64,000 nucleotides of DNA from Cyanophora paradoxa CCMP329 (GCA_004431415.1 QPMI01000075.1:54642-118641); one strand, 5' to 3'; positions 19,105 through 64,000 are shown, counted from the stretch's first letter. The notes: a model not told the origin generated them from the letters alone. Numbers and translations: made by a program.

Positions 19105-19150
19105 TAATATCACTACCTACGGGGGGTTCGCCCCACCATAGTCTCTCAAA
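19105..19150 (+). repeat. Hairpin-containing ~45 bp repeat, copy 1 (short A tail)
   Basis: taatatcactacctacggggggttcgccccaccatagtctctcaaa, one mismatch to the copy at 30503. Confidence 0.85.
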
Positions 19151-21649
19151 TAAAGTCCGTTCTACGGTAGCTATAGGCTATAGCCTTGTAGCGGCAATGT
19201 AGCCTCGCTAGTGTGCGCAGTGCAAGCTGTGTGCAGTGGATCCGATCCCGGAGAGGCTGGGAGAGGCCCGGAGAGCCCGGCCGCGCCCGGCCCGGCCGCG
19301 GTGAAAAGAACGCCTGCTGCCAATTGGGGGTACTCGAGCTCCGGTCCTATAATTGCTTGCATGCATACTCCGTGTTCGCATATGAGCTCAAGATTCCGAG
19401 CGGGTAAGTCTCATGAAACGCAGAAGTCCTCTATCGACGTCGACGTGCACCAGGTAAGTTCAACGGTAGCACGACGAGTCGACGACGTGCACGAGTACGT
19501 ATACGTGACGACTCTGACGACTCAGTGACGAGTCACTGACGAGTCAGTGACGACGTTACCAGATCTAGACGGACGTCGACGACCAGTCGACGTCGTCGAC
19601 CGTCGGTCCGGCGTCGGACCACTCGACGCCGACGAGTCACTGAGTCGGCGACTCGGCGTCGGCGGTACGTCGCCGAGTCGCCGTCGACTCGCCGAGTCGT
19701 CGCTCAATTGCAAACGTTAACGTTGGCGGGGCCCCGAACACATGAAAGCATGCATTCTGAACTCTTCGTCTCATATGCAACTGCAACATGCAGTTTTATC
19801 TCGAAATTCGATTAAGCATTCGATAATTTGGTGTTGACGGAAAATTGGCCAGTATATATATATATTATAGATATTGCAGTTGGTGTTGATGGAAAACGGC
19901 CAATTAGAGTTTTTCGCACGCACATTTTTGTTATACTGACCTCAGGCAGTGTGGCACTACTAGCTATACTATGATAGTACTATGGCTGGTACTAAGTCAC
20001 GTGCACACTGAGTGGTACTCAGTGTGAGTAAGAAGTAGTACTAAGTGTGACTAGTACTGTCGAATCAGTGTCGAGCGCGCTGCGGGCCTGCCGCAGTACT
20101 AGTGCGGGCCTGCGGGCCTGGCTGCGGGACCGGCGCCCGGGCGGCCGGGTGCGGGCCTGCAGGCTGCGGCACGTGCCAGTCGATATCGGAAAGAAAACAT
20201 AATGTTTGCAATCACTGAGTCATTAAATGTTCAACGGTTTGCGGTGCATGCGCACTGCGGCATATATACTGCCGGCGATTGTGCCGTGGTGTTCTTAATG
20301 AGACGTCCACTTTTGCAAAAAAAACGGCTTGAGCAAGCCGGCTCGAGGGGGACGGGCCCCGGACGGCGCGGCCGGCTCGAGCCGGCGAGCCGGCGAGCCG
20401 GCTAGGTATTTTATATATAGTATTTTATATTATTGGAAACGGTATATCGAATATTACACATGGCGAGGACGGCGTACCCCCACCCTCGAGCGGGCTCGAG
20501 CCGGCAATTTGCGCTCGAGCCCCACGGCCCGGCGGTCCCCACCTCTACCGGTAGTCTCTCACTGTCTCTGCCATGGCCAGTGCGGCAGGCAGCCGGCGCC
20601 TGGCAGGCTGTGGCAGGCTGGCAGCTGCAGCCTGCAGGCTGCCGCAGTCACTGAGTGCTGCCTGTACAGGCTGTACTACAAGTAGTGTTACTAGCTATAT
20701 AGTGTACTGTTTACCACTAGTAGTGTACTGTTTACCGTAGTACATGTGGGCCGTGACAGCAACTGCACCTGGCAGCCTGCAGCTGTGGCAGGCAGTGGCA
20801 GCGCAACTCACTGAGTCAGTGTGCCGCAGTGAGTGCAGAGTCACTGCAGACCTTGCCGCGTCGGACCTTGCGAGACCTTGCGCGCGAGACCTTGCAATTG
20901 CGGCCTGCACGAACTCGAAACTGCGATCGGCAGCAGCGCAGCAGCGCATGCAGCTGCTGAGTCGGCGCCGCTGAGCTGCCGCAGTGCAACTACTGTCAGT
21001 ACTGCGCACGCTTGCAATTGCGTAGTGCACTGAAGCACCAGTCGCCCGAGCGCACGTGCCGCAATTCCGAAGTTCGCCGACGTTATAATCAACATGGTCA
21101 CTGGTAGGGTCCCATCCTCATGCATAAATACGCATGAACGCTGATCATGCTCGGTCCGACCAGGAGCGCGACCGGAGGTCAGAAGCGCAGGGGGAGCGCA
21201 ATCTTACCCGCCTCCGGAGCCAGCTCGGCTTCAGGGGGGGGATGCGGTCCACGCATCTGTCCATGCATATGGTGGGCCAAGGCCAGGTAGTAGGCCTACG
21301 CATCCAGGTGCGATGTCGAGCCCTGCCGCAGTGCGCGCGTGGCCCACTGGCCGCGCGCCTTTGAGCAACGCCTTCCGAGTCCGACATCATTCCACATGAT
21401 CAGAGTATTCGACGCGTACGGGCATACAACACACAAGCTCGATGGTTAAGGACTTAACGAATTCGAAGCCGACGTCCGCGAGTCAGCCGCAAATGTCAGG
21501 CATGTACCGTAGTACTTGCAATTGATCATGAGATGCATACATATGCATATATATACATATTCATGCTCGCATCTATATACGTATGCAATGCATATCTATA
21601 GCTAGCTAATCTGTTTCTTGGTTTATTGAAATGCATATAATCCGCACTG

Positions 21650-29849: not shown

Positions 29850-30559
29850 GGTCAGACGGTTTCTGGCGGGGGACCGGAGGCGAACGATTTAATTTGGTAC
29901 GAAGATGGGCCCAGCGCGAGAATATTTGCCTCTCCCGCCTGGTTCAGCCCCATCGTCTGCCTTCCCTGTCACTACTGGCTTGCGTTTCGCCCCTCCTCTT
30001 ATACTGCCGATTCCGAGTCTGCACCCGAGCTCTGCCCCTTTCCTCGTGTCGTCCCCAGTTCCTCAGATTAGTCTTCAGCCGTCCATTGTTTTACCAACTC
30101 TACAATCTCGATTCCGTTTAGACACTCCGCCAGCTTCGACTTTCCCTCTAGTGGTGTCCTACGTTTCGCCTCTCCTACTGTTCTACCGCCTTTGCCTCCT
30201 GCGACTACGTCTTCTAGTTCTGCTGTTAGCTCTGTCTTGTCGTCTTCGTCTAGATCTTCGTCTTCGACTGTAGTTCCTCGTGCTCGTTCTCCTTATTTGC
30301 TGCGTCCCGTGCTCCTCGTCGTTCTAGTGTGACTAGTACTTCTGCATCGACGCCCTTGAGCTCTTCTACTCCTTCTCCTCGTGCTCGTTCTCCTTATCTT
30401 TTGCGTTCTTCTGATCGTGTCCTTTCTCGTGATCCCTCTTGATTCTGTATATATTTTGTGCTAGTTTACTGTATCTTTGATTTGTGATTGCTTTGTTGTC
30501 TTTAATATCACTACCTACGGGGGGTTCGCCCCACCGTAGTCTCTCAAAAAAAAAAAAAA
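29850..30559 (+). mobile_element. Probable retroposon (SINE/LINE) 3' remnant ending in hairpin plus poly(A)
   Basis: Strongly pyrimidine-skewed body, then CTACGG-GGGG-TTCG-CCCC-A-CCGTAG stem-loop, TCTCTC and A14 (30546-30559). The 5' boundary is uncertain and I found no TSD. Confidence 0.5.
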
Positions 30560-47886: not shown

Positions 47887-48540
47887 GGGCGGGGAGTGGG
47901 CCGGCTCGCCCGGCTCGCTCAGCTCCTCAGCGCCTCGCTCCACTTGTTTCTTTCTTTTCAATTGATCATGAGCTTCAGAGGCTGCAATTATACGGCACTA
48001 GATCTTCCAGGGCGGCCGGGCGGGTTCTAGAGGATCTCCGGCGCCGGCGCTCTTAAGGACTCCGGGAGGTGTCTCATGGTCAGAGTAGCTCAGAGCAGCT
48101 TGTTATAAGAGAGGAGAGGAGCCCGGAGAGCCAGGCGCTGAGCTGCCGCAGTGCAGTTGATTGCGCGACGTCGACCGCATGCACGCAACGTCGCAACCTC
48201 GCTCGTGCGGCCGCACCTCAGAATTTGATTGCAATTGCTAGAATAGCCTCGCAATTGCTGATATATATCGAGATGGCACTTTTGCTGCTTTTATATAGGT
48301 GGGCTCTTGCCAAAGGTCGAGCTCTCGAGCTTGCCCCTTCGCTGTCAATGCATTGTTAACCCTCGGAGGTTCGATGAGTCACGCGTCATGGAGGTTTGGG
48401 TGTTATATTGCGATCAGGTACGCCCCGCACTAACAGGGGGGCTAGCACTAACCGACGCGGGGAGTAACAGCCGACGTACCCCCAGGGGGGCCCTCCCGGC
48501 CTCTGACTAGGCTCAGGCTCTAACTGAATTCTGTACCCCC

Positions 48541-49263
48541 TCACTGGCCGAAGTGCGACGGTCCCCACTCGAGGTCGGGGTCGGGCCTTGGGGGCCTCCG
48601 GCGGGGTACGATGCTCCCGCTTGCCAGCTCCATGTACTCCCCCACGGGGTTGTCTTCGTCTGCAAGGTTCGCGTAGTTGCCCTTTACGAGATCCGCCGCC
48701 GCTTTGCGCCAGCGAACGGCCACGTTGTACGTGTTGTCGATGATGTTCTGCACTGTACCCTCCATGGGTATTAGGGACAGCCTATAGTCGAGGTTTCTCT
48801 TACGCAGGTTCAATTCCCTTTCGTAGTACTCCACTGCGTCTGGGAGGGCCCTGAGCTCCACCGCGTGCTCGCCCGGGTCCGACGAGCTAATGAGCCCGGA
48901 GCGCTGCAGTGCGTTCACAGCCGCCCGCAACACGATTTTGCCTACCCCCCGCATCGAATCCCTCTGCTCGGGCGTCCCGTATTCCCCCTGCGGCCCGTAA
49001 TCGTTGTAGTAGCTTTCTATTTCGACGGTGGCTGGTTTATTGCCGACCTGAGGCTGGACGGAGCCGTACACCCATGCCATAGCGTCATTGTCCGCTGAGC
49101 GGGCTTTCTTGGAAGGGGGCGGCAGCACTTCGATTTTGAACTCCCTGGTCCGTCGGTTGACGAGTGTTTTTAGATTGAGGGGGAGGCGCGTATCCCCGAA
49201 TTTATCAGGAAAGAGGCGGTGTAGCTTAAACCACGCTTCCTGATCACCGTAGGTGTACGACAT
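48541..49263 (-). CDS. Putative GNAT acetyltransferase (intronless)
   Basis: Acetyl-CoA motif A-like MRGVGKIVLRAAV followed by VELRALPDAVEYYER; NLS-like PPSKKAR. Confidence 0.6.
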   Translation of the reverse strand: MSYTYGDQEAWFKLHRLFPDKFGDTRLPLNLKTLVNRRTREFKIEVLPPPSKKARSADNDAMAWVYGSVQPQVGNKPATVEIESYYNDYGPQGEYGTPEQRDSMRGVGKIVLRAAVNALQRSGLISSSDPGEHAVELRALPDAVEYYERELNLRKRNLDYRLSLIPMEGTVQNIIDNTYNVAVRWRKAAADLVKGNYANLADEDNPVGEYMELASGSIVPRRRPPRPDPDLEWGPSHFGQ

Positions 49264-49300
49264 TTGCTCGCGGCTCGCTGAGAATTTATACCTGTACCCC

Positions 49301-50002
49301 CTACTCGCGGTCGGGGTACCTGTCGCCGGGCATCAGCCTCGCGCGCTTGCGCAGCTCCGCCTCCCCGGGTAGCCAGTTCTTCGGGTCGTTGCTCCACTCC
49401 TCCCATTCGCGTATGTCTCGCCTGACGTCACGTGGGGCGGGGGCGTTTATCGGTGGGGCGGGCGGGGCTGGCAGGGCCAGGGGCGGGGGGTTGAGGCCCC
49501 TGTCCCACGAGTACTCGGGGTATCTGTCCCATCCCAGGGGTACCAGATGTGCTGGAATCGGCTCGACGTCGTAGTTGGGATCTCTGGCGTTATGATAGTC
49601 ATAGCTCGTGACGTACTTCGTCACGGCCGAGCGCAGGCGCGAGAGGTCGCGCCTATTTACGTCGTCCCGTTCCGAGTCCCTTGCCTTCGCGTACCACTGG
49701 AGGATTTGCATTCGAATGTGGTCCGGGAGGGTCGAGAGAAAGCTGAGCTTGGAGCCCAGGGCGAACCAAATGCGCTTGAACTCATCGATAATCCTGCCCT
49801 CATTGTGGCTTCGAAGGTAGTGGGCCCCGCCAGCGTTGTAATGGCCGTCCAGCCACCCTTCGTTAGCCAGCCTTAGCACCGCCCACGGGACGCGCGGTCG
49901 ATTCGGTCGCGAGGCCTGCTCAACCACCCAGCGTCTAAGGTCCTTGACCTGATCTATGAACTCCGCGATCACGTCCTTGGGCGCTTCCTCTGCAGCCGAC
50001 AT
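49301..50002 (-). CDS. Hypothetical protein (intronless, ~233 aa)
   Basis: Clean ORF with protein-like composition, ATG 50002, Pro-rich linker, preceded by the element's upstream motif. Confidence 0.65.
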   Translation of the reverse strand: MSAAEEAPKDVIAEFIDQVKDLRRWVVEQASRPNRPRVPWAVLRLANEGWLDGHYNAGGAHYLRSHNEGRIIDEFKRIWFALGSKLSFLSTLPDHIRMQILQWYAKARDSERDDVNRRDLSRLRSAVTKYVTSYDYHNARDPNYDVEPIPAHLVPLGWDRYPEYSWDRGLNPPPLALPAPPAPPINAPAPRDVRRDIREWEEWSNDPKNWLPGEAELRKRARLMPGDRYPDRE

Positions 50003-50054
50003 TTGCAATTGCACACATCAAGAAATTCTAAACGCTACTGCGAAGCTAGGAGCT

Positions 50055-50708
50055 ATGGACTGCGAGACTTGCGAGAACTTGCAACAGGGGAGCGCGGCGT
50101 GGCACGCGGCGCGCCGTGAAAAGCTAACTGCCTCGAACTTTGCGGCTGCGTGCGGCATAAATCCCTGGAAATCCAGGGCCCGCCTCTGGGCGGAGCTAAG
50201 CGGGATAGCGGAGGAAAACAACTTTGACAACCCTGCCCTAACCTATGGGCATGACTATGAGCCCCTCGCGGTCTCTATCTACAAGGCACTGAACGATAAC
50301 GTTGACATTAAACATACTGGACTGCACGAACATAAAGAAATGCCGTTCCTCGCCGGTAGTCCCGACGGACTTATAGGAAATGATAGAATTTTAGAGGTGA
50401 AATGCCCGTACAAGGGCGAACTTTATGATAGAGTTCCTACCTATTATATGCCTCAACTGCAAGGACTTCTGGACATCACGGGCCGCGAGTGGGCCGAACT
50501 TTTTTGCTTCACTCCTCTGCGCGTGCAAACGTGGTACGTCAGGCGCGACGAGAGGTACATCGAGCTCATGAGGAAGTGCTTACAGCTATTTTGGATGCAC
50601 GTAAAGGCGGGGACTCCGCCCGAGCCCTACAGCGATCGAATGAAGTCAGAGAACCTCAGCGAGGAGCAGCTAGCGCTTAGGGAGTTCAAGACGTACGCGC
50701 TGATGTAG
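50055..50708 (+). CDS. YqaJ-like viral recombinase / lambda-exonuclease family nuclease
   Basis: QGSAAWHAARREKLTAS, YGHDYEPLA, FLAGSPDGL, LEVKCP, YYMPQLQGLL. Confidence 0.93.
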   Translation: MDCETCENLQQGSAAWHAARREKLTASNFAAACGINPWKSRARLWAELSGIAEENNFDNPALTYGHDYEPLAVSIYKALNDNVDIKHTGLHEHKEMPFLAGSPDGLIGNDRILEVKCPYKGELYDRVPTYYMPQLQGLLDITGREWAELFCFTPLRVQTWYVRRDERYIELMRKCLQLFWMHVKAGTPPEPYSDRMKSENLSEEQLALREFKTYALM

Positions 50709-51152
50709 CGGCTCAGGCCCAGGCCGGGTAGGCGAGTCTGTAATGAATCAGACCGCGCAGGATTTGGTTGAGCTGCTCGGTGCAGGGGGGCGGGAAGGCG
50801 AGGCCGCGGAGGGCCATAGAGACGTAGCGGAAGGGGTGGGGGAGGCGGCCCCTGTTATCCCACATGGCGTCCACTATGGCGTTGTGGACCATTTGCTCGG
50901 AGAGGGGCCGGAGGGCGGGGCGGGCCTGCGCTCACCGTCTCAGTGTCGTTCAGTGGCCCGGGAAGTCGTCCTCGGGGCTGAGTACCGGCGGCATGTCATC
51001 GTACGGCGAGTTGGCGACGGCCGAGGTTTACGCCTCGCTTCATTCGAATGCAGAAGACCTAGCTATCTTACGCCTGGCACTACTTAGCTAGATGCACGGG
51101 ATAGCGCATCAGGTTGGGCCCTGAGGTACGGCAGCTCAAGGCTGCTTTCCCG

Positions 51153-52140
51153 GGAACCACGTATCATAATACGTTGGCGATCGACCAGGGCGGATCGCCG
51201 TATGCCATTCCGGCCTCGCCCTTGCGAGTTCCGGAACAAGAACTCTCCGGGGTAAGCGCGCTAGGCGCCTGTACCCCGGGGAGGGCCGTTGCGGGTCGAG
51301 ACGGTGTACCCCGCTCGGGGGTACTCCTCTCGGGGCCGTCGCGGGGCCGATCGGGTACCCCGCTCGGGGGTACACTTGATCGGGGCCGCTCTGACGCCGT
51401 ACCCCTCTCCGGGGTACGCGTTCGGCCTCGGGCCGCGCCTTGTGGGGCCGGTTGGGGCGAACAGCGTACCCCGGGGAGGGGTACGCGGTTTCTTCCGGGT
51501 TCGGGGATCCGAAGCCGGGTACCGCCGCCGGAGGCCGCGGGGGTGAGCGTAGCGAACGCAGCACGAATGCAGTACCCCCTACCACGCGCATAGCGTGTCC
51601 GTCGTCCGCAGACGACCATGAGACCAAGGGGTCGTACAACATACGACAACCGAGGCTCATCAAAAACCAACAGGACTCCGAAACATGCGCGAAGTCTCCC
51701 CCCGCGCCGGGGCGGCAGACTCGAAAACCCAGCAAGTTACCGCGGGAAAAACCGCGTAACGGTCATGCGCTGGACCCCGGCTCGGCACCCGCGGGTCCAG
51801 AGGAAAAACAGGGTAAAACCCAGCGGTGAAAACCCGAGATTCTCCACGAAGCCGCGCGACTGTTTCTTGGGGGCGCGCTGGACCCCGGCCCGGCACAAGT
51901 GGGTCCAGCGGACGCGCGTGGAAAACGAATGACGACCGGTACACCGAGTCTGCGCGGTTCGTGCCCGAATCTTCGACGGGACTATTGTAAATTACCACGG
52001 ATCAGCTGTGCACGACCACGTCCGCGCTGGTGGCCGGCACCGAGCGGGAGTAACATCCGGAACCGTGTGCACAGGAGACGACAAGGAACCACGTATTATA
52101 ATACCCTCGGCGAACGCTGGCGCTGGTCGCCGTATGCATT
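51153..52140. promoter_or_regulatory. Hairpin- and repeat-rich non-coding spacer, candidate origin or recombination region
   Basis: Two ~55 bp structured copies (51153, 52085), GTACCCC..GGGGTAC palindromes (51270-51484), and two CTGGACCC/GGGTCCAG stems (51770, 51878). Confidence 0.5.
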
Positions 52141-52523
52141 GCCTTTTTTGCGCGAACTTTTTGCGGCGCCGGGGCTCGCTGGGTGGCGAGGTTCGGCGCC
52201 CCGGAAGGAAAAATCGCGGGGAGGTGGGCGGGAGCGATTTCGCTTCGCCGCTGGTCGCTTCGTGGCCTGGAGCGGCCGCGAGCGAAGCTGGGCGTGAAGG
52301 GAAACCCCGAATCAGCGTACCCCCCGGAGCTCGGCGGCTTCAAGCCCGCCGGCTCGGCCCAACGGCTAGCTCAGCTAGTCCCTTGCGGGACGCTCGCTGC
52401 AGCCTGCTGCTTATCCCGTGCTCGCCTCGCGCCGCTCCGCGGCTAGCGAGTCGCTCAGCTCTTTCGTGCCTGGCGCTCGGCTACGGTCTTCTTTGTTCGC
52501 ATTCCGTCGGCGCAAAACTCGAT

Positions 52524-55255
52524 TTACGCATTGAGAGCGCAAATCCCGACCTGCGACGGCGGCGGCGAGCCCGGGGCGGCCGAGCCCTGCGTGGCGAGGG
52601 CCGCCGAGCGCGCCGAGGCGAGCGAGGCCTGCGAGGGTGCCGGCTCCAGCTCCATGTCGAAGACGCCGCCCTCCACGGCGACGGCGACGGGGACGACGGG
52701 CGGCGAGGCCGGGATCGCGCGGGCCTGCTGCGTGGCGGGGACCTGAGCCGAGAAGTTCTCGAGCCGCCACTCGCGGCAGCCCGGGCACTCACCTGGACGA
52801 GGGGCTCGCGGTTGGCGACGGGCGGCGTCGGCAGGGCCTGCGTGGGGCGTCACTTACAGAAGCCGAAGGCGCCGGCCTTGTGGGGCGGGGCGTCGGGGTC
52901 GCGGGGCGTGCTATAGGCCTCCGAGCCCTCCGATTCAGAGTCACTCACCGGGCTGAGAGGGTGGGGTGAGAAGAGGCCGAGGCGGGCCTTCTTGGCGGGC
53001 AGGAGGTGGGAGCCGTTGAGGGCGCAATCGGCGCGGTGGGCACACCTCTCTCCGTAGGTGGGGCAGAGGGCCGGGGCCGAGGGCGCCGGAGCCAAGGACG
53101 CCGGAGCCGAGGACGCCGGGGGCTGGAGGAGGCGGTGAGAGGGGCCGAGGAGGAGAGGAAGGGGGAAGGGCGCGGGCACCGGCGCCTCGACGTCCCAGTC
53201 CGCCAGCTCGGGGAGGCCGTGCTCGTCGAACGCCAGCGCGGGCCGCCCGCTGAAGCCGAACGGGGCGGGGGGCGAGAGCGCGTTGTCCCCGACGCCCCAG
53301 ACGGCGCTGAACGCCGCATCGTCCCAGCGCGCCTCCGCCTCCGCCTGGCCCTCGTCCCTTGCCTCGTCCACCTCCTTGGCGGAGAGCGACCCGATCTTGA
53401 TGATGGAGGCCTGGATCAGCACAAACTCGCGCTGGAAGAATTGGACGAGCGGGATGGTAACTGCGGGAGAGGGGGTGAGCGGGGAGAGCGCGGGGCGCAG
53501 GCCAAGGGCGGGGGCGCAGGCCAAGGGCGGGGCGGACGCACATTCGATGCCGTAGGCCACCTCCTTGATGTAGCGGCCCCGGCGGCCGATCTCCTTGGCC
53601 AGCATGCTGCACTCCTTGCGCGCCGGGTGGCCGTGGCCCCACTCCATGGCGATCATCGCCTTCGCCAGACGGACGCCCTCGATGTGCCACTCGTCCATCA
53701 GCGCCTCCAGATTGGCGCAGATGCGCATCCAGAAGAAGACGCGCTTGAGCTTGTCGCGGTCGAATTCGGCGTCGCCGCTCTTGCTGCCCCAGTCGCGCAG
53801 GTCCGTCTCCTCCGCCTTCTTCACCTTGTCGTACCAGCACTTGATCTTCTCCGCCTGGCGCTGGAACTCGTCCGCCCGCGCCGTGAGAACGTCCGACTCC
53901 TCCTGCGCTCCGAGGGCCCGGGTCAGGGAGGAGAGGCGGGCTAAGCGGGGCGGCGGCGGACCGTGTGCGAGAGCTCGCCGACGATCACGGAGATGGCCGC
54001 CGAGAGGATCTCACGGGCGCGGGCCGGCCCGTTTGGGTGGCCCTCGCGCAGAACCTCCTCCAGCTTCAGCACGGCCGCCCGCGCGAGATCGCGGTGGCGC
54101 TGGCGGGCCTCGTCGCTCCGGCCCTGATCCACGAGAAGCTGGAGCTGGGGCCGCATGCCGGAGTCGCAGACGCTGGCGTACTTCCGAAGGGCCGCGCAGG
54201 AGAGCACCTTCTGCACGCTGACCAGCCAGTACGCGTAGCCCAGCGGGCTCTCCGCGCTCGGGTTCTCTCCGACCTGCGGACGCGACCTTAGCGCGCGCAG
54301 GGGCAGGGGAAAGGGGAAAGGGCGGGCTCTCGCGCACGTAAATGTCATCGGCGCAGGAGAGGAACATGTGATCAACGACGTCGAAGAAGCCGCCGGACGG
54401 GAGCGTGCCGACGCCGTGGTACGCGCCTTGGATGGTCTCACCGGCGCAGATGCCGGCCTGGACGGTGACGGTGTACTGCGAGGCCGGCGGCCCCTCCTTC
54501 ACGTAGACGAAGTTGAGGTCGTACTTCTTGGCGTACGTCGGGTTGATGCGCTTGGTGACGATGACGTAATCGCACCGAACGCCGAGGCCGGACGGGCTGG
54601 CCTTCTCCTTCTCCGTCACCGACGCCAGGCACTGATCCCGCGCGATCAAGAGCTGCGGCGGCCCGCGCGTGAGCAAGCGCGGGCACGCGAGCGCAGGGAA
54701 GGGCCCTCACCCCGTGGGCGCCGCCGCTGCCGGATTTGAGGTCCGCGAGGAACTCCTTCTGCTCCGGAGTGCCGGAGAAGATCGCGCGCGGATGGAAATC
54801 GCGATGGAGCGCGATGCTGTTGAAGCAGCCCGCCGCCGCATTGTCGGACATCAGCAACAGCGCCACATCGCCGTGCGTGAAGCCGTACTTCGCCTTCACA
54901 TACTCCGGCAGCTCGTGAATGCTGTAAGGCACGATCTGCGCGCGGGGCACGCGAGCCGGGGCATGTGAGCCGGGGCCGAAGCGGTGCGGGCGAAACCGCG
55001 AACCTCGTTGAACTTATTAACCGGCGTGAACTGGCCCTTGGTCTTCAAGCGCTTCGGGTGGCCGTCCGTGTTCTGGATCTTCTTCAGCCCGCCGAACGGC
55101 TCGAAGCGCGGCACGCCGGCCGAGTTGAACACGCTATCGTAGGTCATCGCGTTGAGCGCCTCCTCCGCCGATAGGCTGCCGAGATCGCGGGCTATGCTGT
55201 CCTGCTCGCCGGGCTGCTGCTGCTTCGCGCAGGAGCGGAAGGTCGCCGCCTGCAT
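52524..55255 (-). CDS. Intron-containing element protein with possible 2OG-Fe(II) dioxygenase-like domain (3' end uncertain)
   Basis: Exons join from MQAATFRSC; contains CFNSIALHRD (HxD) and IQGAYHGVG (distal His), then a helical region and a low-complexity tail with PAKKARL. Confidence 0.55.
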
Positions 55256-55550
55256 GGTGGTTGTTACTGCCAGTGAAGTGCAACACCTCCAACGGATTCC
55301 GTTCACGGGTCGTACCCCGCACTGGCTTGCCCCCCCCCCTAACTCGCGAAGACTCAGACTTGAAGCGCGCTTCTCCCCCCGTCCGCGTCGCGTACCCCCC
55401 CAGGCTGCAACCCCCCGTCGGTTTCTCGCTTTTTCTCTCTGGCGATGCAATGCAAGCCGCTCGTTCAAACCAGCTGGAAACTTGGCGCCAAAGCCTTCGC
55501 AGCCCGCGCGCAGCACTCGCAGCAGCGGCGGCAGCAGCAGCGGCGGCGGC

Positions 55551-56930
55551 ATGTCTCGGCTCGCGCTCCCTCCGGAGATCCCGGCTAAGCTGGCGAGGAA
55601 CACGCTGTACGACGTTCTCTGCATCGGCGACAGCTTCGGCATCGATTGGACGGTTTTCGAGGCCGGCATCAGCGACCAGGCGAAGGAGGCGCAGGCCCGG
55701 GCGCTGGAGGATGGCATGCAGTTCAGCCCGAACAGCAAGGATGTGCTGCGCAAGACCGAGCTGGCCGAGCGCAAGCGCAAGCTGGCCGCGGCGCAGACTT
55801 TGAACGCCGAGGGTGCCCCCGGCCCGTCGGTGCAGTTCTCCATCGACTCCGTCCTGTCGCGGCTGCGGCTCGCGGAGGTGCTCGCTGCCTCTTTCTCTCT
55901 GCGCTCGCAGCGGCTGAGGCGCCGCGGCGCATCGCAGGACGCGGACGTGCGGGCGATGCACGCGGCGCTGAACATGACGGAGGAGAACTTCGACACGCCG
56001 AGCAAGCCGAAGCCCGGGCGCGATGCCGACGCCCGCCGGCTGTTCGCGGCGCAGCGCCTGCGGCTGCTCATGGGCGCCGTGCCCCGGCACATCGCCAAGG
56101 GCGAGTGGCGCACGATTGGCCTGCTGACGGGCCCGGAGGAGTTCTACTTCAACCGCATGGCGGAGGCGGCCGGGCACCTGCTCTGGCTGCTGGTGCTCAG
56201 CTCGGACCCGGCCTACAAGCCCGAGGTGCGCCCCAGCCGCCCGTGCAGCCGCGACCGCCCCTCCCCGCCGACCCCGCCGGCCCGCAGATGCTGGCGAAGG
56301 GCATCATGGGCATCGAGGTGCGCTGCATCAAGAAGAACAGCCGCGACTTCATCACGCGCCACGAGAGCTCGGCGGTCTGGGGCGAGCGGCCGGACACCGG
56401 CGTCCTCACCGACGCCTACGCCATCCGCATCGTGCTGGAGGCGGCCTGCCGGACGTGCCGGGACCGCCACGGGCGCCAGGGCATCTGCGCCTTCGACCTG
56501 GTTCCGGAGTTCGAGGTGCCCGGCGTCACCATCGGCGACCGCGTGCAGGTGCGCCGTTTCTATTTGGATGCTATTTAGATGCTATTTAGACTATTTAGAT
56601 GCCATTTAAACCCCCTCGCAGGTCATCCGGCGGTGCTCGATGCCGGACTCGCACGGGCGCCCCATGATCCACGGCGCCGTGAAGTACGTGGTGCCGCGGC
56701 GCACCCTCGCCCTCGCCTTCTTCGTCCCCGTCTTCGACAAGGCGGCCGCCGCCGCCGCCGCCGCCGCCTCCCGCCCCCGCCCCATGCTCGCGGCCACGGA
56801 GTCCTCGGATTCCGGCTCGGATTCCGAGGAGGAGCGCGACGCCGAGGCCGCCGCCGCGGCCCGGGCGCTGGACTTCACGGAGGAGGAGCTCGAGCGGGCG
56901 CGGAGCCTGCGCGCGCCGGCCGGGAGATGA
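55551..56930 (+). CDS. Intron-containing hypothetical element protein (CxxC motif, acidic tail)
   Basis: Four exons join in frame from MSRLALPPE to ..LRAPAGR*; CRTC motif; its TGA overlaps the next ATG. Confidence 0.65.
56561..56610. repeat. 11 bp tandem repeat (TATTTAGATGC)n inside an intron
   Basis: tatttggatgc tatttagatgc tatttagac tatttagatgc catttaaa. Confidence 0.8.
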
Positions 56931-59900
56931 CCGCCGTCTTCAAGGCGGCGATCGGCGAGGCGACGGCCTCCGCCTCCGGCGACGGGGCCGGAGTTAGCAA
57001 GATCACGGCGGAGGGCCTCGCGCGCGCCATGCGCGTGGCCCAGGCCCAGGCCCAGGCGAAGGGCAAGGGCAAGGGCAAGGTCGCCTACATCAACCTCAAG
57101 TTCGAGAAGGAGGACGTGCCCGCCCCGGCGGCGCGGCGCGATCTCGGCGAGCAGATGGAGGCGGCGGCCCCCAAGGCGGCCGGCCCCGAGCCGGCCGGTG
57201 CGCCCTCCCCACCCCAAAATTCTGAGCCTAGGGCGTTCCGGCGCCGCAAAGGAATGACCCTGCCCACAGAGGAGGAGCTGGAGGCCGAGCGCGAGATGGA
57301 GGAGGAGGCCGCGCTGGCGGCGGCGGCGGACGCGAAGGCGGCGCGCGAGCTGGAGGTGGCGGAGGAGTACGCGATGGAGCTGGAGCGCGAGCGCGAGCGC
57401 GAGGGCGAGGCCGACGCCGAGCTGGCGGCGGCGGCGGCGGGGGACACCTTCGAGCCCGAGCCCCCGTCGACGAGTTCTACCCCCTCCCGCCCTCCCCCTC
57501 CCTCGAGTACGCCCCGCCGCCGCCCGTGGAGGAGTTCTCGGACGACGAGCCCGGCGACGCTGGCCCCAGGCCGCCCCTCGTCTCCCCCCGCCGCCCGCCC
57601 GCCCCCGTGCCCCCCGCCAGCCCCGCCGCCTCCGACGTCTCCTGGCGCCCGAGCGGCAACCCCTCGGCCTTCAGCCCCGTCCCGCCGTCGCAGCGCTCGC
57701 AGCGCTCGCAGCGCCCGCCGCCCTCCGTCCAGGGTACCCCCCTCGCCCGCCCCATCCCCTCGCCGCCGCGGGGCACGCCCGTCGCCACGCCCGTCTCCTC
57801 CCTCGGCCACATGCCCCCTCCGCCCCCTCCGGCCCCCCGCGCCGGCCGCCTCTCCCGCCGGGCCCAGCAGCGGCGCGAGCGCGAGCGGCAGCTGCTGCGC
57901 GATCAGCGGGCGGAGGCGGAGGCGGACCACGACGACGGCCAGGCGTCGGAGAGCGACGGCGAGCCGCCGCGCGCCACCAGGCTGGAGCTGGCGCGGGCGG
58001 AGCTGGCGGCGCAGCCGCGCGAGGCGCCCGAGATCGACATGTCCAAGTACGACGACGTGACAACGTACAGCAAGGACAACAAGTCGAGGAAGGAGGCGGC
58101 CATTCAGGATGCGCTCCGCCTCTTCGTCAAGAACAACGTGCGCCCCGCCCCCCTTAGAGGCCGGAGGCGGCCGTGGCCCAGCTGCGTAAGGCGCTGGGTC
58201 CGAGCCGCCTTCGGCCGGTGCGCCCCCCTCCCGCGTTCGAACCCCGCTAACCCCCTTTTGCCGGCGCAGCGGATCGTGCGCCAGAGACCCTACGGCCCGA
58301 ACTCCCCGCCCACCTTCTACGTCGAGCTCCCGAACCTCTTCGTGTACGACAAGGTCAGCGCGAACAGGCACGCCGGGCGCGGGACGATGAAGGAGGTCAT
58401 CCAGCTGCTGGCGATGACCTTCCACAAGACCTACGAGTCCAGCCCCGGCTCCTTCGAGTTCACCTTCTCGAAGGAGGTGCTCTCGGGGCGGACGCGCACG
58501 TTCGTGGAGGAGTCCCTCCAGCTCGAGGACGTCTGCCCGAGATGCCCGTCATCCCCGGCTTCGCCTTTGCCTGCGACACGCGTGCGCCGCCCGTACCCCT
58601 GCGCCCCGCCCCGTACCCCGCCGACGCCCCTTGCGCAGATTTCGTGGTGCGGGCGCCGCAGGACAGCACGGGCAGCGCCTGCACCCTCGTCATGTCGCAC
58701 GAGGAGGCACGGGAGCGGTACGCGGGCTACATGAACACCTGCTACATCCAGGGGCGCCTGCCCGCGGGCATCGAGGAGGCGGCCGAGACGTGCGACTGGC
58801 CCGCCGTGTACGGTATGCTGCATCCCTTCATGCCCAACGTCGTCAAGCACCTGGCGGACAACGGCTACGTGACGGCCGACGAGTTCGGCTACGCGGCGGC
58901 CGTCCTCTACGCCTTCAACCTCGTCGGGCCGTGGAACTTCTGCGACAAGCCCGTCTTCGACCGGGAGCCGCGCGCGGAGATCGAGCCGCCGTCCGAGGCG
59001 CCATGCTGCAGTACTGCGGCATCATCAAGGGCCAGTCGGGCACGGGTGCGCCCCGCCCCCGCCTTTCCCTCTTCCTTTTCCTGAGACCCCGCGCGCGCAG
59101 GCAAGTCGATGGTGACGCAGATCATGACGGAGTGCCTGCCGCCAAGCCGCGTCTGCGTCTACCGCCCCTCCAAGGGCTCGGCCTTCTCGGAGCACGGCGG
59201 CGAGGAGGCGATCTGCATGGTGATGGCGGAGGGCCTCGACCCTAAGGCCTGCTCGGAGGAGGAGCTCAAGATGCGCTCCGGCGACGCCTACTCCCGCAAC
59301 TTCAAGAACGTCCGCGGCGACGACGTGCGCACCAAGGCGACGCGCAAGGTGCTTGTCATCGTCTGCAACAGCTTCCCGCAGGTGCGCCCGTTCCCCTTCC
59401 CCTCCCCGGCGCCCTTTCTCACTTGCCCCGGCGCAGCTCGAGAACCGCATGCTCGAGTTCTTCGCCCGCGTCGTCCTGATCCCCCTCGACCACAAGCCGG
59501 CCAAGAAGCGCACCTACCTCCACTCCGACATCCGCGAGAACGAGCTGCCGGCGCTCATGGTCGCGGCCTTCACCTTCGCGTGGAAGATCATCCACGCGCT
59601 CTCCGACGGCAAGGCCTCCTGCATCCAGGCCTTCGAGCCGGCGTGGCTGCGGGCGCAGCGCCTCGGCTTCTGGCAGGAGACGGCCTCCTGCCCCCTCACC
59701 CGCTTCATCATCACCCACTGCGCCGTCGACCCCACCACCTACGTCGCCGCCCCGAACACGGAGGGCTGGATGACGAGCGTCGCGGGCATCGTCGAGTACA
59801 TCGCGCGCACGGAGGGCCCGGACACCTCCGCCGCCGTCGGCGCCGACATCGAGAACGGCCGGCTGGACGAGACCCTCGCCGGCTTCGGCTCCTGGTGCCG

Positions 59901-60755
59901 CCTCTACTCCTACAAGCTCGGCGGCATCTGGCAGACCTACATCCGCGGCATCGCCCCCAAGGCCCCGCTCTCCCTCGGCGAGAGCCAGCCGGCGCTGGAG
60001 GCGATCGCGATCCCCGTCGCCCAGTTAAAGGACCCGGTGGACGACGTCGGGCCCTTCCTCGTCAAGCCCCACACCAAGGGCAAGGGCAAGCGCACCCGCA
60101 ACTCGGCGCCGGCCTTCCTCCCGCCCCAGCCCCCCGCCACGGCCCCCCAGCAGCGCCCCGGCCAGCAGCGCATCGACGAGATGCTGCCGCGCCAGGTCCG
60201 GCCCCGCGTACCCCCCGCCTTCCCTGTACCCCCCCTCCCCTCGCCCCCCTCCTGATCCAAGGGCAGGGTACCCCGGCGAACGGCGGCGCGGGCCCGAGCG
60301 GCCACGGGAGCTCGGCCTCCCCCGTGAGCGCCGACGGCCCCAGCCCCGTCCCCGGCCCCGGCGCCGTCCTCTCCGCGATCCAGGGCTTCGGGGCCCAGCA
60401 GGAGGCGGAGCGCCGGGCGGCGGCGGTGCGGCAGGAGCAGGAGCGGGAGCAGCGGCGCGTCGGCCTCTGGCACCAGCGCCAGGGGCAGGTCCTCGCGGAG
60501 CGGCTGGACCTGGAGACGGGCGTCCGGACGGGGCAGGTCTCGGGCACCGATGCCGTGGCGCGCTGGCGGGCGATCGAGGCCGCGACCGTGGCGCTGGCGG
60601 AGCAGCTCGGCTACAGCTACCGGCGCGTCGCCGTCCCGCACTCGTACGGGCGGCGGGCGGCGCGGGAGGCCTCGCGGGCGGATATCGACGCGGCGGAGGA
60701 GGTGGCGGCGGCGACGGAGGCCCACGCCCAGACCTTCCGCCACCTCCACCACTAG
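56927..60755 (+). CDS. D5-like superfamily 3 helicase (multi-exon; apparent 1-nt frameshifts)
   Basis: Walker A GQSGTGKS after removing intron 59046-59100, Walker B-like ICMVMAE, motif C VIVCN, Arg-finger region FFARVVLIP; long acidic/Pro-rich N-terminus. Confidence 0.8.
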
Positions 60756-60808
60756 AGCGGCCGCGGGCTAGGTATTTTTTCTCAACCCTCCCTCAATTCG
60801 GTCCCGCG

Positions 60809-61000
60809 ATGGCCCTCGCTGACTCGTATCCTGCCCATTATAGCCTTGGAGCCCTCGCCGCGACCCTCACCTGGCTCCTCGGCGGCACCCCCACCGCCTC
60901 GGCGGTCATCGGCGTGGGCTTCGGCTACGCCGCCAAGACCCTCTACGCCCCCGGCTCCGTCTCGATGGCGACGGCCGGCATGCGCCCCGCCGGGCGCTAA
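60809..61000 (+). CDS. Small hydrophobic protein (63 aa)
   Basis: Two hydrophobic Gly/Ala-rich segments; upstream TTTTTTCT motif. Confidence 0.55.
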   Translation: MALADSYPAHYSLGALAATLTWLLGGTPTASAVIGVGFGYAAKTLYAPGSVSMATAGMRPAGR

Positions 61001-61113
61001 CTTTTCCCTTTTCAAAGTTTTCCAACGTTCATTCCCCCTTTCCCTTTTCCAAGTTGCTCAAGTCCGTCGACGTTCCCTTTTAAATTTTCTTCATTCACGT
61101 TACACGTCTGAAC

Positions 61114-61611
61114 ATGCCGAACGCCGTAGAGAAGCTGTTGTGTACAGTGTTCAAATCGGACTCGCGCTGCAGCAAGATCGGCGAGGCTGCCAAGGGCGGG
61201 GGCGGGGCGAAGGCCGGCGGCGGGGCGGAGGGGCCTAAGATAAGGGGCGCGGACCCGGCGCCGCCGGCGCTGAAGTCGATTAAGGCTGCGGGCAAGGGCC
61301 GCGGCGTCGGGCCCCTGCCCCTCGTAGCGATCGCCCCCGGCCAGAGGGAGGCGGCACACGCGGCGACGGCGGCGCTGGCCTCGCAGCAGCAGAGGGAGGG
61401 GGCGCCGCGCCTGAGCGCCGGCCTCTGGTCGCAGCCTGCGCCCGCGCGCGAGTACGGCGTCAGCGCCTTCTTCGACGGCGCGAACGAGCTTAGCCGCCAG
61501 GAGATCTGGGCCTGGGAGGCGCGGCGCGCGGTCGACGGGCACCTGCCGCTGCTCGTGGCGCTCGGCGGCTCGCTCCTGATGGTCTGGTACCTGCGCGGCC
61601 TCGCGATTTAG
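61114..61611 (+). CDS. Hypothetical protein with C-terminal TM helix
   Basis: Intronless ORF ending LPLLVALGGSLLMVWYLRGLAI; upstream AAATTTTCT. Confidence 0.65.
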   Translation: MPNAVEKLLCTVFKSDSRCSKIGEAAKGGGGAKAGGGAEGPKIRGADPAPPALKSIKAAGKGRGVGPLPLVAIAPGQREAAHAATAALASQQQREGAPRLSAGLWSQPAPAREYGVSAFFDGANELSRQEIWAWEARRAVDGHLPLLVALGGSLLMVWYLRGLAI

Positions 61612-61637
61612 ATAGATTTTCGGAGTCTAGGGCAAAG

Positions 61638-62039
61638 ATGGGCTGGGTAGACGGCCTCCTCACCAAGGTCTTCGGCCCGAAGAGCGCGCAGCCGCCGCCG
61701 AGCTTCAACCTGGCCGCGGCGATCAGCACGACGATCGAGCGCAAGAACAACGAGCTCATCCTCAAGAACGACGGCAAGCTTCCCTGGGCCGACGTGGCCG
61801 CGGGCGCGCTGGGCAGCACGTTGACGGGAATTGATCGGACGGGCGCCGCGGGCGTGAAGGTCGGGCAGGCGGTTGCGGCCGTGCCGGAGCTTGCGATGAA
61901 GGGCTGGCACTACGCCAAGATCGCCGCCGGCGTCGCCGCGGTGCTCCTTGCGATCTGGCTCGCGTGGCAGCTGCGCGGCGCCTACCAGGGCGCGCGGCTT
62001 CAGAGCGCGCAGCTCGACTATTTTCTAAAGGCTAGGTAA
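61638..62039 (+). CDS. Hypothetical membrane protein (MG start, amphipathic N-terminus, C-terminal TM)
   Basis: MGWVDGLLTKVFG..IAAGVAAVLLAIWLAWQL. Confidence 0.7.
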   Translation: MGWVDGLLTKVFGPKSAQPPPSFNLAAAISTTIERKNNELILKNDGKLPWADVAAGALGSTLTGIDRTGAAGVKVGQAVAAVPELAMKGWHYAKIAAGVAAVLLAIWLAWQLRGAYQGARLQSAQLDYFLKAR

Positions 62040-62051
62040 AGCGGGCGAACC

Positions 62052-62429
62052 ATGCCCCGCGGCGGCTCTTCCCCCCGTGTCTCCTTCGCTGAGGAGAACG
62101 CAGCGGACGCTACCCCCCTGGAGCCCGGCGTCAAGCTGGAGCGCGCGAACGCAGTCTCCACCAAGAAGGCCAAGCGCGCGCTGATGCTAGCGGAGGAGAG
62201 CCCAAAGGTGCAGCAGGAGAGTCAGATCATCGCATTCAACAAGCGCAAGACGTACAAGGCGATACGCGAGGGCCAGCTGCTGCCCACGGACGCGGTTCCC
62301 GGCCTGCCGGACACTACGGCCGGCGAGCTCCTAGTGCGCAACCTGCGCCTGCAGTACGTCTCCCGCCTCCGCCGCTCCAAGGCCAAGAAGGCGCGCCTGG
62401 ACTCGGGCGATAGCAGCGCTAGCTCGTAG
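62052..62429 (+). CDS. Basic hypothetical protein with RVxF motif and NLS
   Basis: SPRVSFAE near the N-terminus; RRSKAKKARL near the C-terminus; 12 bp after the previous stop. Confidence 0.65.
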   Translation: MPRGGSSPRVSFAEENAADATPLEPGVKLERANAVSTKKAKRALMLAEESPKVQQESQIIAFNKRKTYKAIREGQLLPTDAVPGLPDTTAGELLVRNLRLQYVSRLRRSKAKKARLDSGDSSASS

Positions 62430-62445
62430 GGCTTTGTACTCAATA

Positions 62446-62730
62446 CTACCAGTTCCTGTTCCTATCCCAGAGCACGACTCGGGTAAAGGGCACGGTCATA
62501 GCGAACATGAACTCGGCAAACTTGGAAAAGTTCATGAGGGTCCCCAGGCGCGGGTCCTCCCAGTAGATCGCTTCGCGCAGGGCCTCGTAGATGCGCATGA
62601 GGGAGCGCTCGTTCTCGGTCGCGAAGGCGTCGGAGGGCTCGTCCGGGTCCGGATCCGAGAGCTCCGAGTACTCGTCCGAGCTGCCCGCGCTCTCGACGCC
62701 TGCGGCCGGGTCGGGCGAGGGGTCAGCCAT
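62446..62730 (-). CDS. Small acidic hypothetical protein
   Basis: Intronless 94 aa ORF with upstream ATTTTCT. Confidence 0.6.
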   Translation of the reverse strand: MADPSPDPAAGVESAGSSDEYSELSDPDPDEPSDAFATENERSLMRIYEALREAIYWEDPRLGTLMNFSKFAEFMFAMTVPFTRVVLWDRNRNW

Positions 62731-62757
62731 TCTTAAAGCTAGGGCTAGAAAATCGGA

Positions 62758-63096
62758 CTAGCGCCGGTACTCCATCGAGTCGCCGCGCCAGTACTTGTTG
62801 CCGGAGGCGAGCAGCTTCATCGGCTCGCCCGTCGAATCGTGCGTCCAGGCCTCGCCCGTCCAGACGGCCGTGCCGCCGTCCTCTAGCTTGAGGCGGTGGC
62901 CCGCCTCGAGCCGATCGCCGTTGAGCATGCGGCCGGCCATGAGCGCCAGGTCCCACTCGGTGAGGCCGCGCTGCTCTTCGGGGGTGAGGCCGCGCTCGAC
63001 GCGCTCGGGCTGGCGCGCCTCGCGCTCCATGCGGCTGAGGCCCACTAGGAAGAAGATCGGCAGCGCAAAGGCCATGAGATCTAGCAGGGCCTCCAT
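62758..63096 (-). CDS. Hypothetical protein with N-terminal TM helix
   Basis: MEALLDLMAFALPIFFLVGL; upstream CTTTTCT. Confidence 0.65.
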   Translation of the reverse strand: MEALLDLMAFALPIFFLVGLSRMEREARQPERVERGLTPEEQRGLTEWDLALMAGRMLNGDRLEAGHRLKLEDGGTAVWTGEAWTHDSTGEPMKLLASGNKYWRGDSMEYRR

Positions 63097-63107
63097 TGAG
63101 AAGGGAC

Positions 63108-63398
63108 TTAGAAAAGGTTCCGGGCCAGGCCCGAGAGCTGCGGGCCCAGGCGCCGGGCGGCGTAGTAGAGCGCGGCGGCCGCGGCGGCCAGGATCAGGAG
63201 GCGAGGCGGGCCGCGCGCGGGCTCCTCCAAGGTCAAGTCCACGGTCTCGGGCTCGCGCGCCGACGTTGCCAGGATCTCGGGCTCGGAGCTGAGGGACTTG
63301 GGCCCGCGGCGGCGGCGCTGCTTGGGAGCGGAGGCGGCGGCCACAGAGAGAAGGTCCTCGGGCTCCTGCTTGATACCTGCACAGTCAGCAAAGTCCAT
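63108..63398 (-). CDS. Small protein with SUMO-site, NLS and SIM-like motifs and a C-terminal TM helix
   Basis: ATG 63398: MDFADCAGIKQEPE..PKQRRRRGPK..ETVDLTLEE..LLILAAAAAALYYAA. Confidence 0.6.
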   Translation of the reverse strand: MDFADCAGIKQEPEDLLSVAAASAPKQRRRRGPKSLSSEPEILATSAREPETVDLTLEEPARGPPRLLILAAAAAALYYAARRLGPQLSGLARNLF

Positions 63399-63568
63399 GC
63401 TTGCTGGGTACCTTGGAAAATTGTGATAGCTCACGTGAGCGCTCAGCTGAAGAGGGGGGGAGAAGTGACGCGGACGCGTCCCAAACCCGTCACCGTCACA
63501 GCGCAAGAGACTTGGACTCGGGGTCCCGGCCAAATTCTCGCCGGCAAAAAATCTAGGGGTACGGCCAA

Positions 63569-64000
63569 ATGACTGCTATCCCAGCAGAGAGGGAGTTCCT
63601 GTCCAACGCTATGAGAAGGGCAGAGGAGCTGGAAGTGCAGAAGGCCATGCGCCTAGCGCTCAGCGGCTCGCTGGAGAACCAAGGCAGGAGGCTGGCATTA
63701 GAAGAGGCAAAGGCGCGGGGCGCTAGCGCAGACGAGCTAAGCCAGTTCGACTGGGGCCCGCAGCGCTTAAGGCCCGGAGGCCAGGCCGGCCAGGTCTTCC
63801 CGGCGCCGCCGGCGCGCTCGCCTAACGATGTGTTGAACCTGCAGTTCAACTACCAGACAATGCTGAGCACGATAGAGGAAGCGGGCTGGCAGCTTCCCGA
63901 CGCCGTGCGCGAGCGCATCGCTTACTACGTCTTTGGAGAGGGAGAAGAGCAGCTGTGGAAGCTCACAAGGGGCGTGTTCGCGGGGCTGTTCGGCGAACCG
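63569..64000 (+). CDS. Hypothetical protein, open to window end (absent from ORF track because it has no stop)
   Basis: MTAIPAEREFLSNAMRRAEELEVQKAMRLAL..; 144 codons without a stop; upstream AAATTCT. Confidence 0.65.
   Translation, partial: MTAIPAEREFLSNAMRRAEELEVQKAMRLALSGSLENQGRRLALEEAKARGASADELSQFDWGPQRLRPGGQAGQVFPAPPARSPNDVLNLQFNYQTMLSTIEEAGWQLPDAVRERIAYYVFGEGEEQLWKLTRGVFAGLFGEP

Follow-up and report, generated by a model that had tools for sequence, protein, structure and literature searches.

A 64,000-nucleotide stretch of DNA from Cyanophora paradoxa CCMP329 (GCA_004431415.1 QPMI01000075.1:54642-118641; the whole stretch is called the window, with positions counted from its first letter) raises the question of what reads a short word, (A/C/T)WWTTC (HWWTTC), that stands just upstream of the intronless open reading frames (ORFs) of a ~15-kb multicopy virus-like element. 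The original prediction took the word for an element-specific, late promoter or initiator, possibly read by an element-encoded factor or a helper virus. Our analysis supports an element-specific and virus-type motif, because the word is absent before host and intron-bearing genes (one host gene excepted), occurs at each of the two divergent gene pairs, and agrees in sequence and spacing with a motif found independently in mriyavirus-like contigs. Judged from these sequence comparisons, it is very probably a virus-type promoter of some kind.

A Motif Tied to the Starts of Intronless Element Genes

The part of the element that is common to other copies extends approximately from 48292 to 63551, limits set by contig ends and derived from the 30-nt unitig overlap of low-depth flanking contigs, those of X1 ending at 48321 and those of X2 starting at 63522. 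The depth of DNA contigs climbs steeply from ~48.3 kb and drops at ~63.5 kb, homologs of the helicase-like gene were found on 30 different contigs, and the ORFs are intact in many element copies.

Within the 50-nt stretch ahead of each ATG, of which the first 42 nt were counted, HWWTTC precedes all 11 intronless ORFs between 48541 and 64000, neither of the two intron-rich element genes, and one of 12 host genes (Fisher p = 1e-5), the host set being hand-annotated with ATGs placed by eye, some of them possibly wrong. Stricter forms precede 10 (WWWTTC) and 8 (WWWTTCT) of the 11 ORFs. The motif thus stands ahead of essentially every intronless element ORF, as originally claimed, and is not equally common before host genes. 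All ten strings quoted in the original prediction were found at their positions and on their strands, although CTTTTCT at 63110, listed there under WWWTTC, does not fit that pattern. Such AT words had also been called rare, which they are not: 48292-64000 contains 32 occurrences of HWWTTC, of which 12 stand at these gene starts, and the window contains WWWTTCT 31 times. What is non-random about the motif is its position and strand, not the word itself. The distance from the TTC core to the ATG is 17–34 nt, and a W-rich 5' side with TTC lies 15–35 nt before the ATG on the coding strand in 11/11 intronless ORFs. The observed count was reached in 0/3000 mononucleotide and 0/1500 dinucleotide shuffles of the upstream stretches (dinucleotide maximum, 7), and the best equally degenerate 6-mer, found in 11/11 real stretches, reached at most 8/11 across 25 shuffled sets. 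These shuffles of the same upstream stretches rule out AT-rich spacer bias as the source of the motif. No variant position fell inside a motif among the best 40 of 852 and the best 40 of 249 variants.

On the minus strand, AAATTCT (49281..49287) precedes a 240-aa ORF (48541..49263), its TTC lying 21 nt upstream. The near-palindromic AGAAATTCT (50021..50029) carries the motif on both strands, with full TTCYRA on the plus strand, and serves the divergent 233-aa (49301..50002, minus) and YqaJ (50055..50708, plus) ORFs, as had been proposed; it lies 22 nt from the ATG of the former (B233) and 29 nt from that of the latter at 50055. Further along the plus strand, TTTTTTCTCA (60775..60784) precedes a 63-aa ORF (60809-61000), AAATTTTCT (61082..61090) a 165-aa ORF with a hydrophobic C-terminus (61114-61611), ATTTTC (61616..61621) a 133-aa ORF with a hydrophobic stretch (61638-62039), and the full motif ATTTTCTAA (62020..62028) a 125-aa ORF (62052-62429). 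Minus-strand sites are ATTTTCTAG (62745..62753), before a 94-aa ORF (62446..62730); CTTTTCTAA (63108..63116), with the full core, before a 112-aa ORF (62758-63096); and the full motif AATTTTCCAA (63413..63422), before a 96-aa ORF (63108-63398). A second AAATTCT (63532..63538, plus) precedes an ORF of at least 144 aa that runs from 63569 to the window end (64000, plus) at ~single-copy depth, past the shared part; this ORF may belong to a variable region or be a sign of a longer parent element. Two sites lie inside the last codons of the preceding ORF, again as originally described: ATTTTCTAA within the 133-aa ORF, and 63110-63116, which runs over the stop codon of the 96-aa ORF. In a common variant copy, 24 inserted letters flank ATTTTCTAG on both sides, with none listed within its block (62745..62753).

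The Same Word in Mriyavirus-Like Contigs

An alignment of YqaJ fetched 160 loci, which formed 83 clusters, and representatives of at least 5 kb were used. Among these, 28 carried a capsid of the nucleocytoplasmic large DNA virus type (22 of them also VLTF3), 19 carried VLTF3 alone, and 16 had no marker. Pfam matches on example contigs (L001, L004, L015) were to capsid, A22, VLTF3 and, weakly, A32, and L023 is a gamadvirus named in PMC11253617.

An unbiased k-mer count over 24 such contigs placed TTTCT, TTCTGA, TTCTAA, and TTCCAA on top. In the 28 dereplicated capsid contigs, TTCYRA precedes 211 of 380 ORFs (21.7 expected from shuffles), compared with 8 of 163 ORFs in the 16 marker-less contigs (6.5 expected) and 0/17 in the giant-virus-like locus L142. 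The viral peak lies 16–30 nt before the ATG, the same distance as in the element. TTCYRA is spread over the three frames (83/60/74) and is therefore no stop-codon artefact, an origin that the frame spread and the marker-less controls together rule out. Restricting the count to family-validated genes gave 278/426, including 22/28 capsid and 10/22 VLTF3 genes. WWWTTCYRA stands before most genes of gamadvirus-like genomes in these 28 contigs.

The motif also follows gene orientation. Among family-validated genes, 32 of 34 divergent junctions have TTCYRA, 21 of them on both strands, and the 232 tandem junctions have it in sense 129 times vs. 6 times in antisense. At the convergent junction of the ATPase and VLTF3 genes, it is found mainly on the strand of the ATPase gene, directed into VLTF3 in antisense orientation.

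A matrix trained on viral sites only scored element upstreams above host upstreams (p = 2.5e-4). Matches of at least 10 bits in the element numbered five, all 17–34 nt before a same-strand ATG; four are sites noted earlier, and the fifth, the full motif AAATTCTGA (57217..57225, plus), lies inside an intron of the helicase-like gene (57198-57269) and is a predicted internal promoter. The ATG at 57254, 34 nt past AAATTCTGA, is in frame with the next exon, and models P0092 and P0093 have the same start. Letters left open in the original prediction, the full YRA after TTC, occur at 4 of the 11 listed sites (p = 0.002) and at the intronic site. Comparison with viral promoter motifs, which that prediction had called for, thus gave the same word and spacing in 28 mriyavirus-like contigs; TCTA, the motif of CroV and mavirus, was found upstream of 6/11 element ORFs vs. 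0/12 host genes, with 3' flanks that are not AT-rich.

RNA Contigs Over the Element

Five runs from four studies were taken as RNA, with spliced joints supporting the RNA nature of each; the data are assembled contigs. GT-AG introns of the intron-rich element gene "Rev" are spliced in them. Two further GT-AG introns lie on the minus strand, one at 61436..61542 inside the 165-aa ORF and one at 61591..61663 covering the motif and ATG of the 133-aa ORF, with joints in X17, X19, and X20 and not in the DNA run X2. Since these are canonical minus-strand introns, the RNAs run antisense to both ORFs. The joint 50516-50586 (X15, X16) has its minus-strand acceptor end inside YqaJ. Another joint, 62695-62761 (X17, X20), takes out both the start codon of the 94-aa ORF and the motif before it; the joint has non-canonical ends in this copy and probably derives from a variant copy.

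RNA contigs cover the small-ORF cluster in 5/5 RNA-type runs and bridge the motifs at 61082, 62020, 62747, and 63110, though a contig does not equal one transcript. Three studies have contigs that end at 63378-63388, 27–37 nt past the 63415 motif, and two have ends at 63081 and 63098 (one of them in adapter), shortly past the 63110 motif; these ends hint weakly at initiation near these two motifs, alongside much read-through. The 240- and 233-aa ORFs and a 1523-nt insert in Rev have little RNA-contig cover, which was not taken as silence.

Gene Content and Kinship of the Element

The gene order is 240 (−), 233 (−), YqaJ (+), Rev (−), helicase-like (+), 63/165/133/125 aa (+), 94/112/96 aa (−), and 144+ aa (+). 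Only YqaJ, a 217-aa PD-(D/E)xK nuclease (PF09588, E = 1.9e-28), passed the Pfam cut-off among the element proteins; it is 35–40% identical to mriyavirus-like YqaJ. Among 1564 window frames plus reversed decoys, a small acidic viral family matched the 94-aa ORF best (E = 0.012; hhalign probability 41%, next best of 290 pairs 12%), and this ORF is probably homologous to the small acidic protein conserved next to RuvC in mriyavirus-like contigs. Neither the 240- nor the 233-aa ORF has a significant Pfam or PHROG match. By eye, the 240-aa ORF has stretches that resemble GNAT acetyltransferase motifs, with no Pfam support, and it is strongly divergent from other copies.

Profiles of major capsid protein, A32 ATPase, and RuvC/A22 built from the viral loci matched neither the window in six-frame translation nor the spliced models. 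VLTF3 had no match in the window by Pfam, by the family profile, which hit a single reversed decoy, or by hhalign comparison with Rev, and no VLTF2 profile emerged among the viral loci. None of 29 viral-locus families was found in the window besides YqaJ and the small acidic protein. There was no Pfam or PHROG match to an HUH endonuclease in the pieces and models scanned, for which no dedicated mriyavirus HUH profile was used, nor to virophage or polinton-like virus (PLV) capsids or packaging ATPase in the element proteins scanned, likewise with no dedicated PLV capsid profiles. No capsid gene or integrase was found within the window, and no terminal repeats; comparing the ends of the multicopy part with each other gave no inverted match. 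The right-hand end of the element may fall past the window. Related loci were found neither by YqaJ alone in viral contigs nor by helicase alignment in metagenome and viral contigs; profiles of helicase and Rev had no match in the one viral record searched, and no mriyavirus helicase was recognized in the viral loci for comparison with the P-loop domain of the element.

The intron-rich helicase-like gene (55551..60755, plus; ~1500 aa) has a C-terminal P-loop domain and no motif within 60 nt of its ATG. That domain matches AAA_22 in 5/7 models (E = 0.002–0.17, below the curated cut-off) and may be an SF3/D5-like helicase, an assignment based on Walker A and motif C by eye together with the sub-threshold AAA_22 matches. 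Its N-terminus has no usable match in Atlas, and a Protein Data Bank sequence search with the helicase alignment returned nothing meaningful. Models P0100 and P0106 of other copies have a common, unrelated N-terminal stretch, suggesting that in some copies another element is inserted in the helicase gene. Rev (50713..55255, minus), ~800 aa in other copies, has no motif upstream; 50713-50892 matches the C-terminus of the Rev models P0116/P0121/P0128, and relatives form only 3 clusters at 50% identity among 1.84 billion representative proteins, with no distant relatives. AlphaFold models were too poor for use (mean pLDDT 31 for Rev, 42 for the helicase). In this copy Rev is interrupted by the 1523-nt insert (51027..52549), which is multicopy and missing from some copies (joint 51026-52550 in X1, X2, and X16); no terminal inverted repeat or target duplication was seen, and the insert contains palindromic GTACCCC-rich repeats and a 38-nt direct repeat (51767, 51875).

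Elsewhere in the window, a 50-nt direct repeat (19105-19154 and 30503-30552, 96% identical, with an A run after the second copy) encloses an 11-kb stretch of low GC that contains a spliced membrane-protein-like gene and is possibly a mobile element. Inverted partial duplicates (~83% identical) at 17117-17989/36734-37590 and 30831-31123/35081-35376 flank this stretch, and the duplicated pieces come from a gene that is MutS-like by eye.

Discussion

Mriyaviruses have no RNA polymerase, encode VLTF2/VLTF3, and are thought likely to replicate in the nucleus (PMC11253617); in poxvirus work, VLTF2/VLTF3 activate late genes (PMC8400408). We propose that WWWTTCYRA is the core promoter for VLTF2/VLTF3 of mriyaviruses and would be used by the element too. 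Since no VLTF3-like protein was found in the window, the late factor would come in trans, from an infecting or a separately integrated virus; of the two readers originally suggested, the element-encoded factor loses ground, and a helper is the likelier because no element-encoded reader was found. The element would then follow a two-tier program, in which the intron-rich helicase and Rev are run like host genes and keep the element replicating, and the eleven intronless genes (the nuclease and small proteins, several with hydrophobic stretches) are switched on by the late factors of a compatible virus, as would be a short helicase form from the intronic site at 57217. As long as no helper is present, most of the RNA over the cluster would be spliced read-through, running antisense to YqaJ and to both the 165-aa and the 133-aa ORF. 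The "late" timing is suggested by the co-occurrence of the motif with VLTF3 and by the precedent of TCTA in CroV and mavirus. For the mechanism as a whole, a viral core promoter read in the nucleus by host RNA polymerase II (Pol II) with VLTF2/VLTF3 of a helper, we judge the balance to be modestly in favor.

Several results weigh against it. No helper was seen in this host, within the window. The viral YRA tail is missing at 7/11 sites, three element sites score below 0 on the viral matrix, and strong matrix matches have a similar density in host DNA (11 in 48 kb) and in the element (5 in 15.7 kb), so that position carries the signal. TTCYRA also occurs at 14/20 convergent viral junctions, 19 of the 20 being the ATPase/VLTF3 pair, so a role at 3' ends keeps some plausibility. 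Kinship is uneven: the homology of the 94-aa ORF is modest, the element YqaJ groups outside the capsid-bearing contigs (FastTree, 135 sequences), and helicase and Rev had no match in the 160 viral loci. Other RNA contigs have ends that are distant from every motif, at 63176 and 63235, and X17 cover across the 63415 site is low (depth ~5); if minus-strand RNAs do start at motifs in culture, that would mean some motif activity without a known helper.

The element could instead be a reduced or partly seen mriyavirus-like provirus, its capsid and VLTF genes lying past 63.5 kb in rare long copies, or at another place in the genome; the factor that reads the motif would then belong to the provirus itself or to a sibling, or the motif would be a relic. 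The intronless, motif-bearing ORF at 63569 does run past the window at ~single-copy depth; three of its products are of types that mriyaviruses encode, namely the PD-(D/E)xK nuclease, the large protein with its putative C-terminal SF3-type helicase, and the 94-aa protein; and giant-virus insertions have been reported in C. paradoxa (PMC12344493). However, the multicopy part ends at ~63.5 kb, only YqaJ and the small protein match the window among the 29 viral-locus families, and ORFs that are intact in many copies speak against a mere relic. We regard a provirus as unlikely. Reading by the late machinery of a cytoplasmic giant virus, in the manner of TCTA in CroV and mavirus, appears improbable: the six TCTA-bearing upstreams, with none before host genes, speak for it, and TCTA in AT-rich flanks is common to CroV, ChlorV, and type-4 endogenous mavirus-like elements (EMALEs), but 5/11 upstreams lack TCTA whereas all 11 have TTC and the W-rich 5' side of the mriyavirus-like motif, RNA from the intronic site would still require splicing, and the sole giant-virus-like locus fetched (L142) has TTCYRA before none of its ORFs (0/17).

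Two readings need no viral factor. An AT-rich initiator of host Pol II alone, with constitutive genes, would fit the cover of the small-ORF cluster in all five RNA-type runs and the several contigs that end just past two motifs; yet the motif is absent before 11/12 host genes and the element's two host-like genes, the strand-informative joints over plus-strand ORFs are antisense, and the same word marks viruses reported from unrelated hosts, and we therefore hold it to be quite improbable. Very improbable is a role in splitting polycistronic RNA, as a signal for termination, cleavage, or trans-splicing. In its favor, several sites have AG as their last letters or overlap the stop of the gene before them, and the viral convergent ATPase/VLTF3 junction often has the motif; against it, the motif occurs at both divergent pairs, where no gene ends, and is absent at the convergent 125/94 junction. 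The host acceptors observed are G/C-rich, no leader-like loose end lay at a motif among the top 24 loose ends of each of two sets (with 1576 and 102 more), and RNA contigs cross motifs.

PLVs and giant-virus insertions have been reported in C. paradoxa (PMC12220804, PMC12344493), and the available text of these reports does not describe this element; the main text of PMC10120064 does not mention Cyanophora. Closest among known systems are the mriyaviruses (Mriyaviricetes, "Gamadviridae"; PMC11253617), with which the element shares the upstream word and spacing (28 contigs, one a named gamadvirus), the PD-(D/E)xK nuclease, the large protein with a putative C-terminal SF3-type helicase, the probable small acidic homolog, and a predicted nuclear transcription by host polymerase. 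It differs in its size (~15 kb vs. 35–45 kb), in its two genes full of spliceosomal introns, in a nuclease that is not nested among theirs, and in having, within the window, no match to capsid, ATPase, RuvC, or VLTF3, and in these four it is no mriyavirus. Mavirus and type-4 EMALEs (PMC8547959, PMC5294985, PMC13196603) are likewise multicopy and integrated, with a short viral promoter word near the ATG, the late TCTA of CroV, whose core is contained in TTCTAA; Gezel-14T shares the early motif of its helper virus PgV (10.1101/2022.07.28.501842). These provirophages, in contrast, encode capsids and use a cytoplasmic giant virus, whereas the element has no capsid found, a TTCYRA-like motif, and two spliced host-type genes. 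Transpovirons (PMC11788076) are capsid-less, with a helicase, small and membrane proteins, and helper-virus promoters, but they are 7-kb linear episomes with terminal inverted repeats; the element, twice their length, integrated, multicopy, and intron-bearing, with no terminal repeats found, is no transpoviron by size or by terminal repeats. Punuivirus, a latent giant virus of Chlamydomonas (10.64898/2026.10.09.758095), similarly sets intron-bearing, host-run genes against viral-late-promoter genes; it has 506 genes, makes virions, and uses a different motif (AAANAACATAAG). Tentatively, the element may be a capsid-less chromosomal satellite of nuclear mriyaviruses, with host-type replication genes, with eleven accessory genes and a short helicase on helper-read WWWTTCYRA, and kept quiet by spliced antisense RNA.

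We found no description of a mriyavirus promoter in the open-access main texts covered by our searches; the founding paper, in its available text, never uses the word "promoter", and in the passages covered of another paper that names mriyaviruses the promoters studied are those of virophages and PLVs; WWWTTCYRA, a candidate mriyavirus promoter, would if true be the first described and a possible relative of the late TCTA of CroV. Borrowing of helper promoters is known for cytoplasmic giant viruses, and would, if the proposed reading is true, be extended to their small, polymerase-less nuclear relatives and to glaucophyte algae. To our knowledge, no virus has been isolated from glaucophytes. 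The motif can serve as a tag in the search for the helper and in setting the limits of such elements, and it opens the standing question of how late factors redirect host Pol II to testing in a culturable alga.

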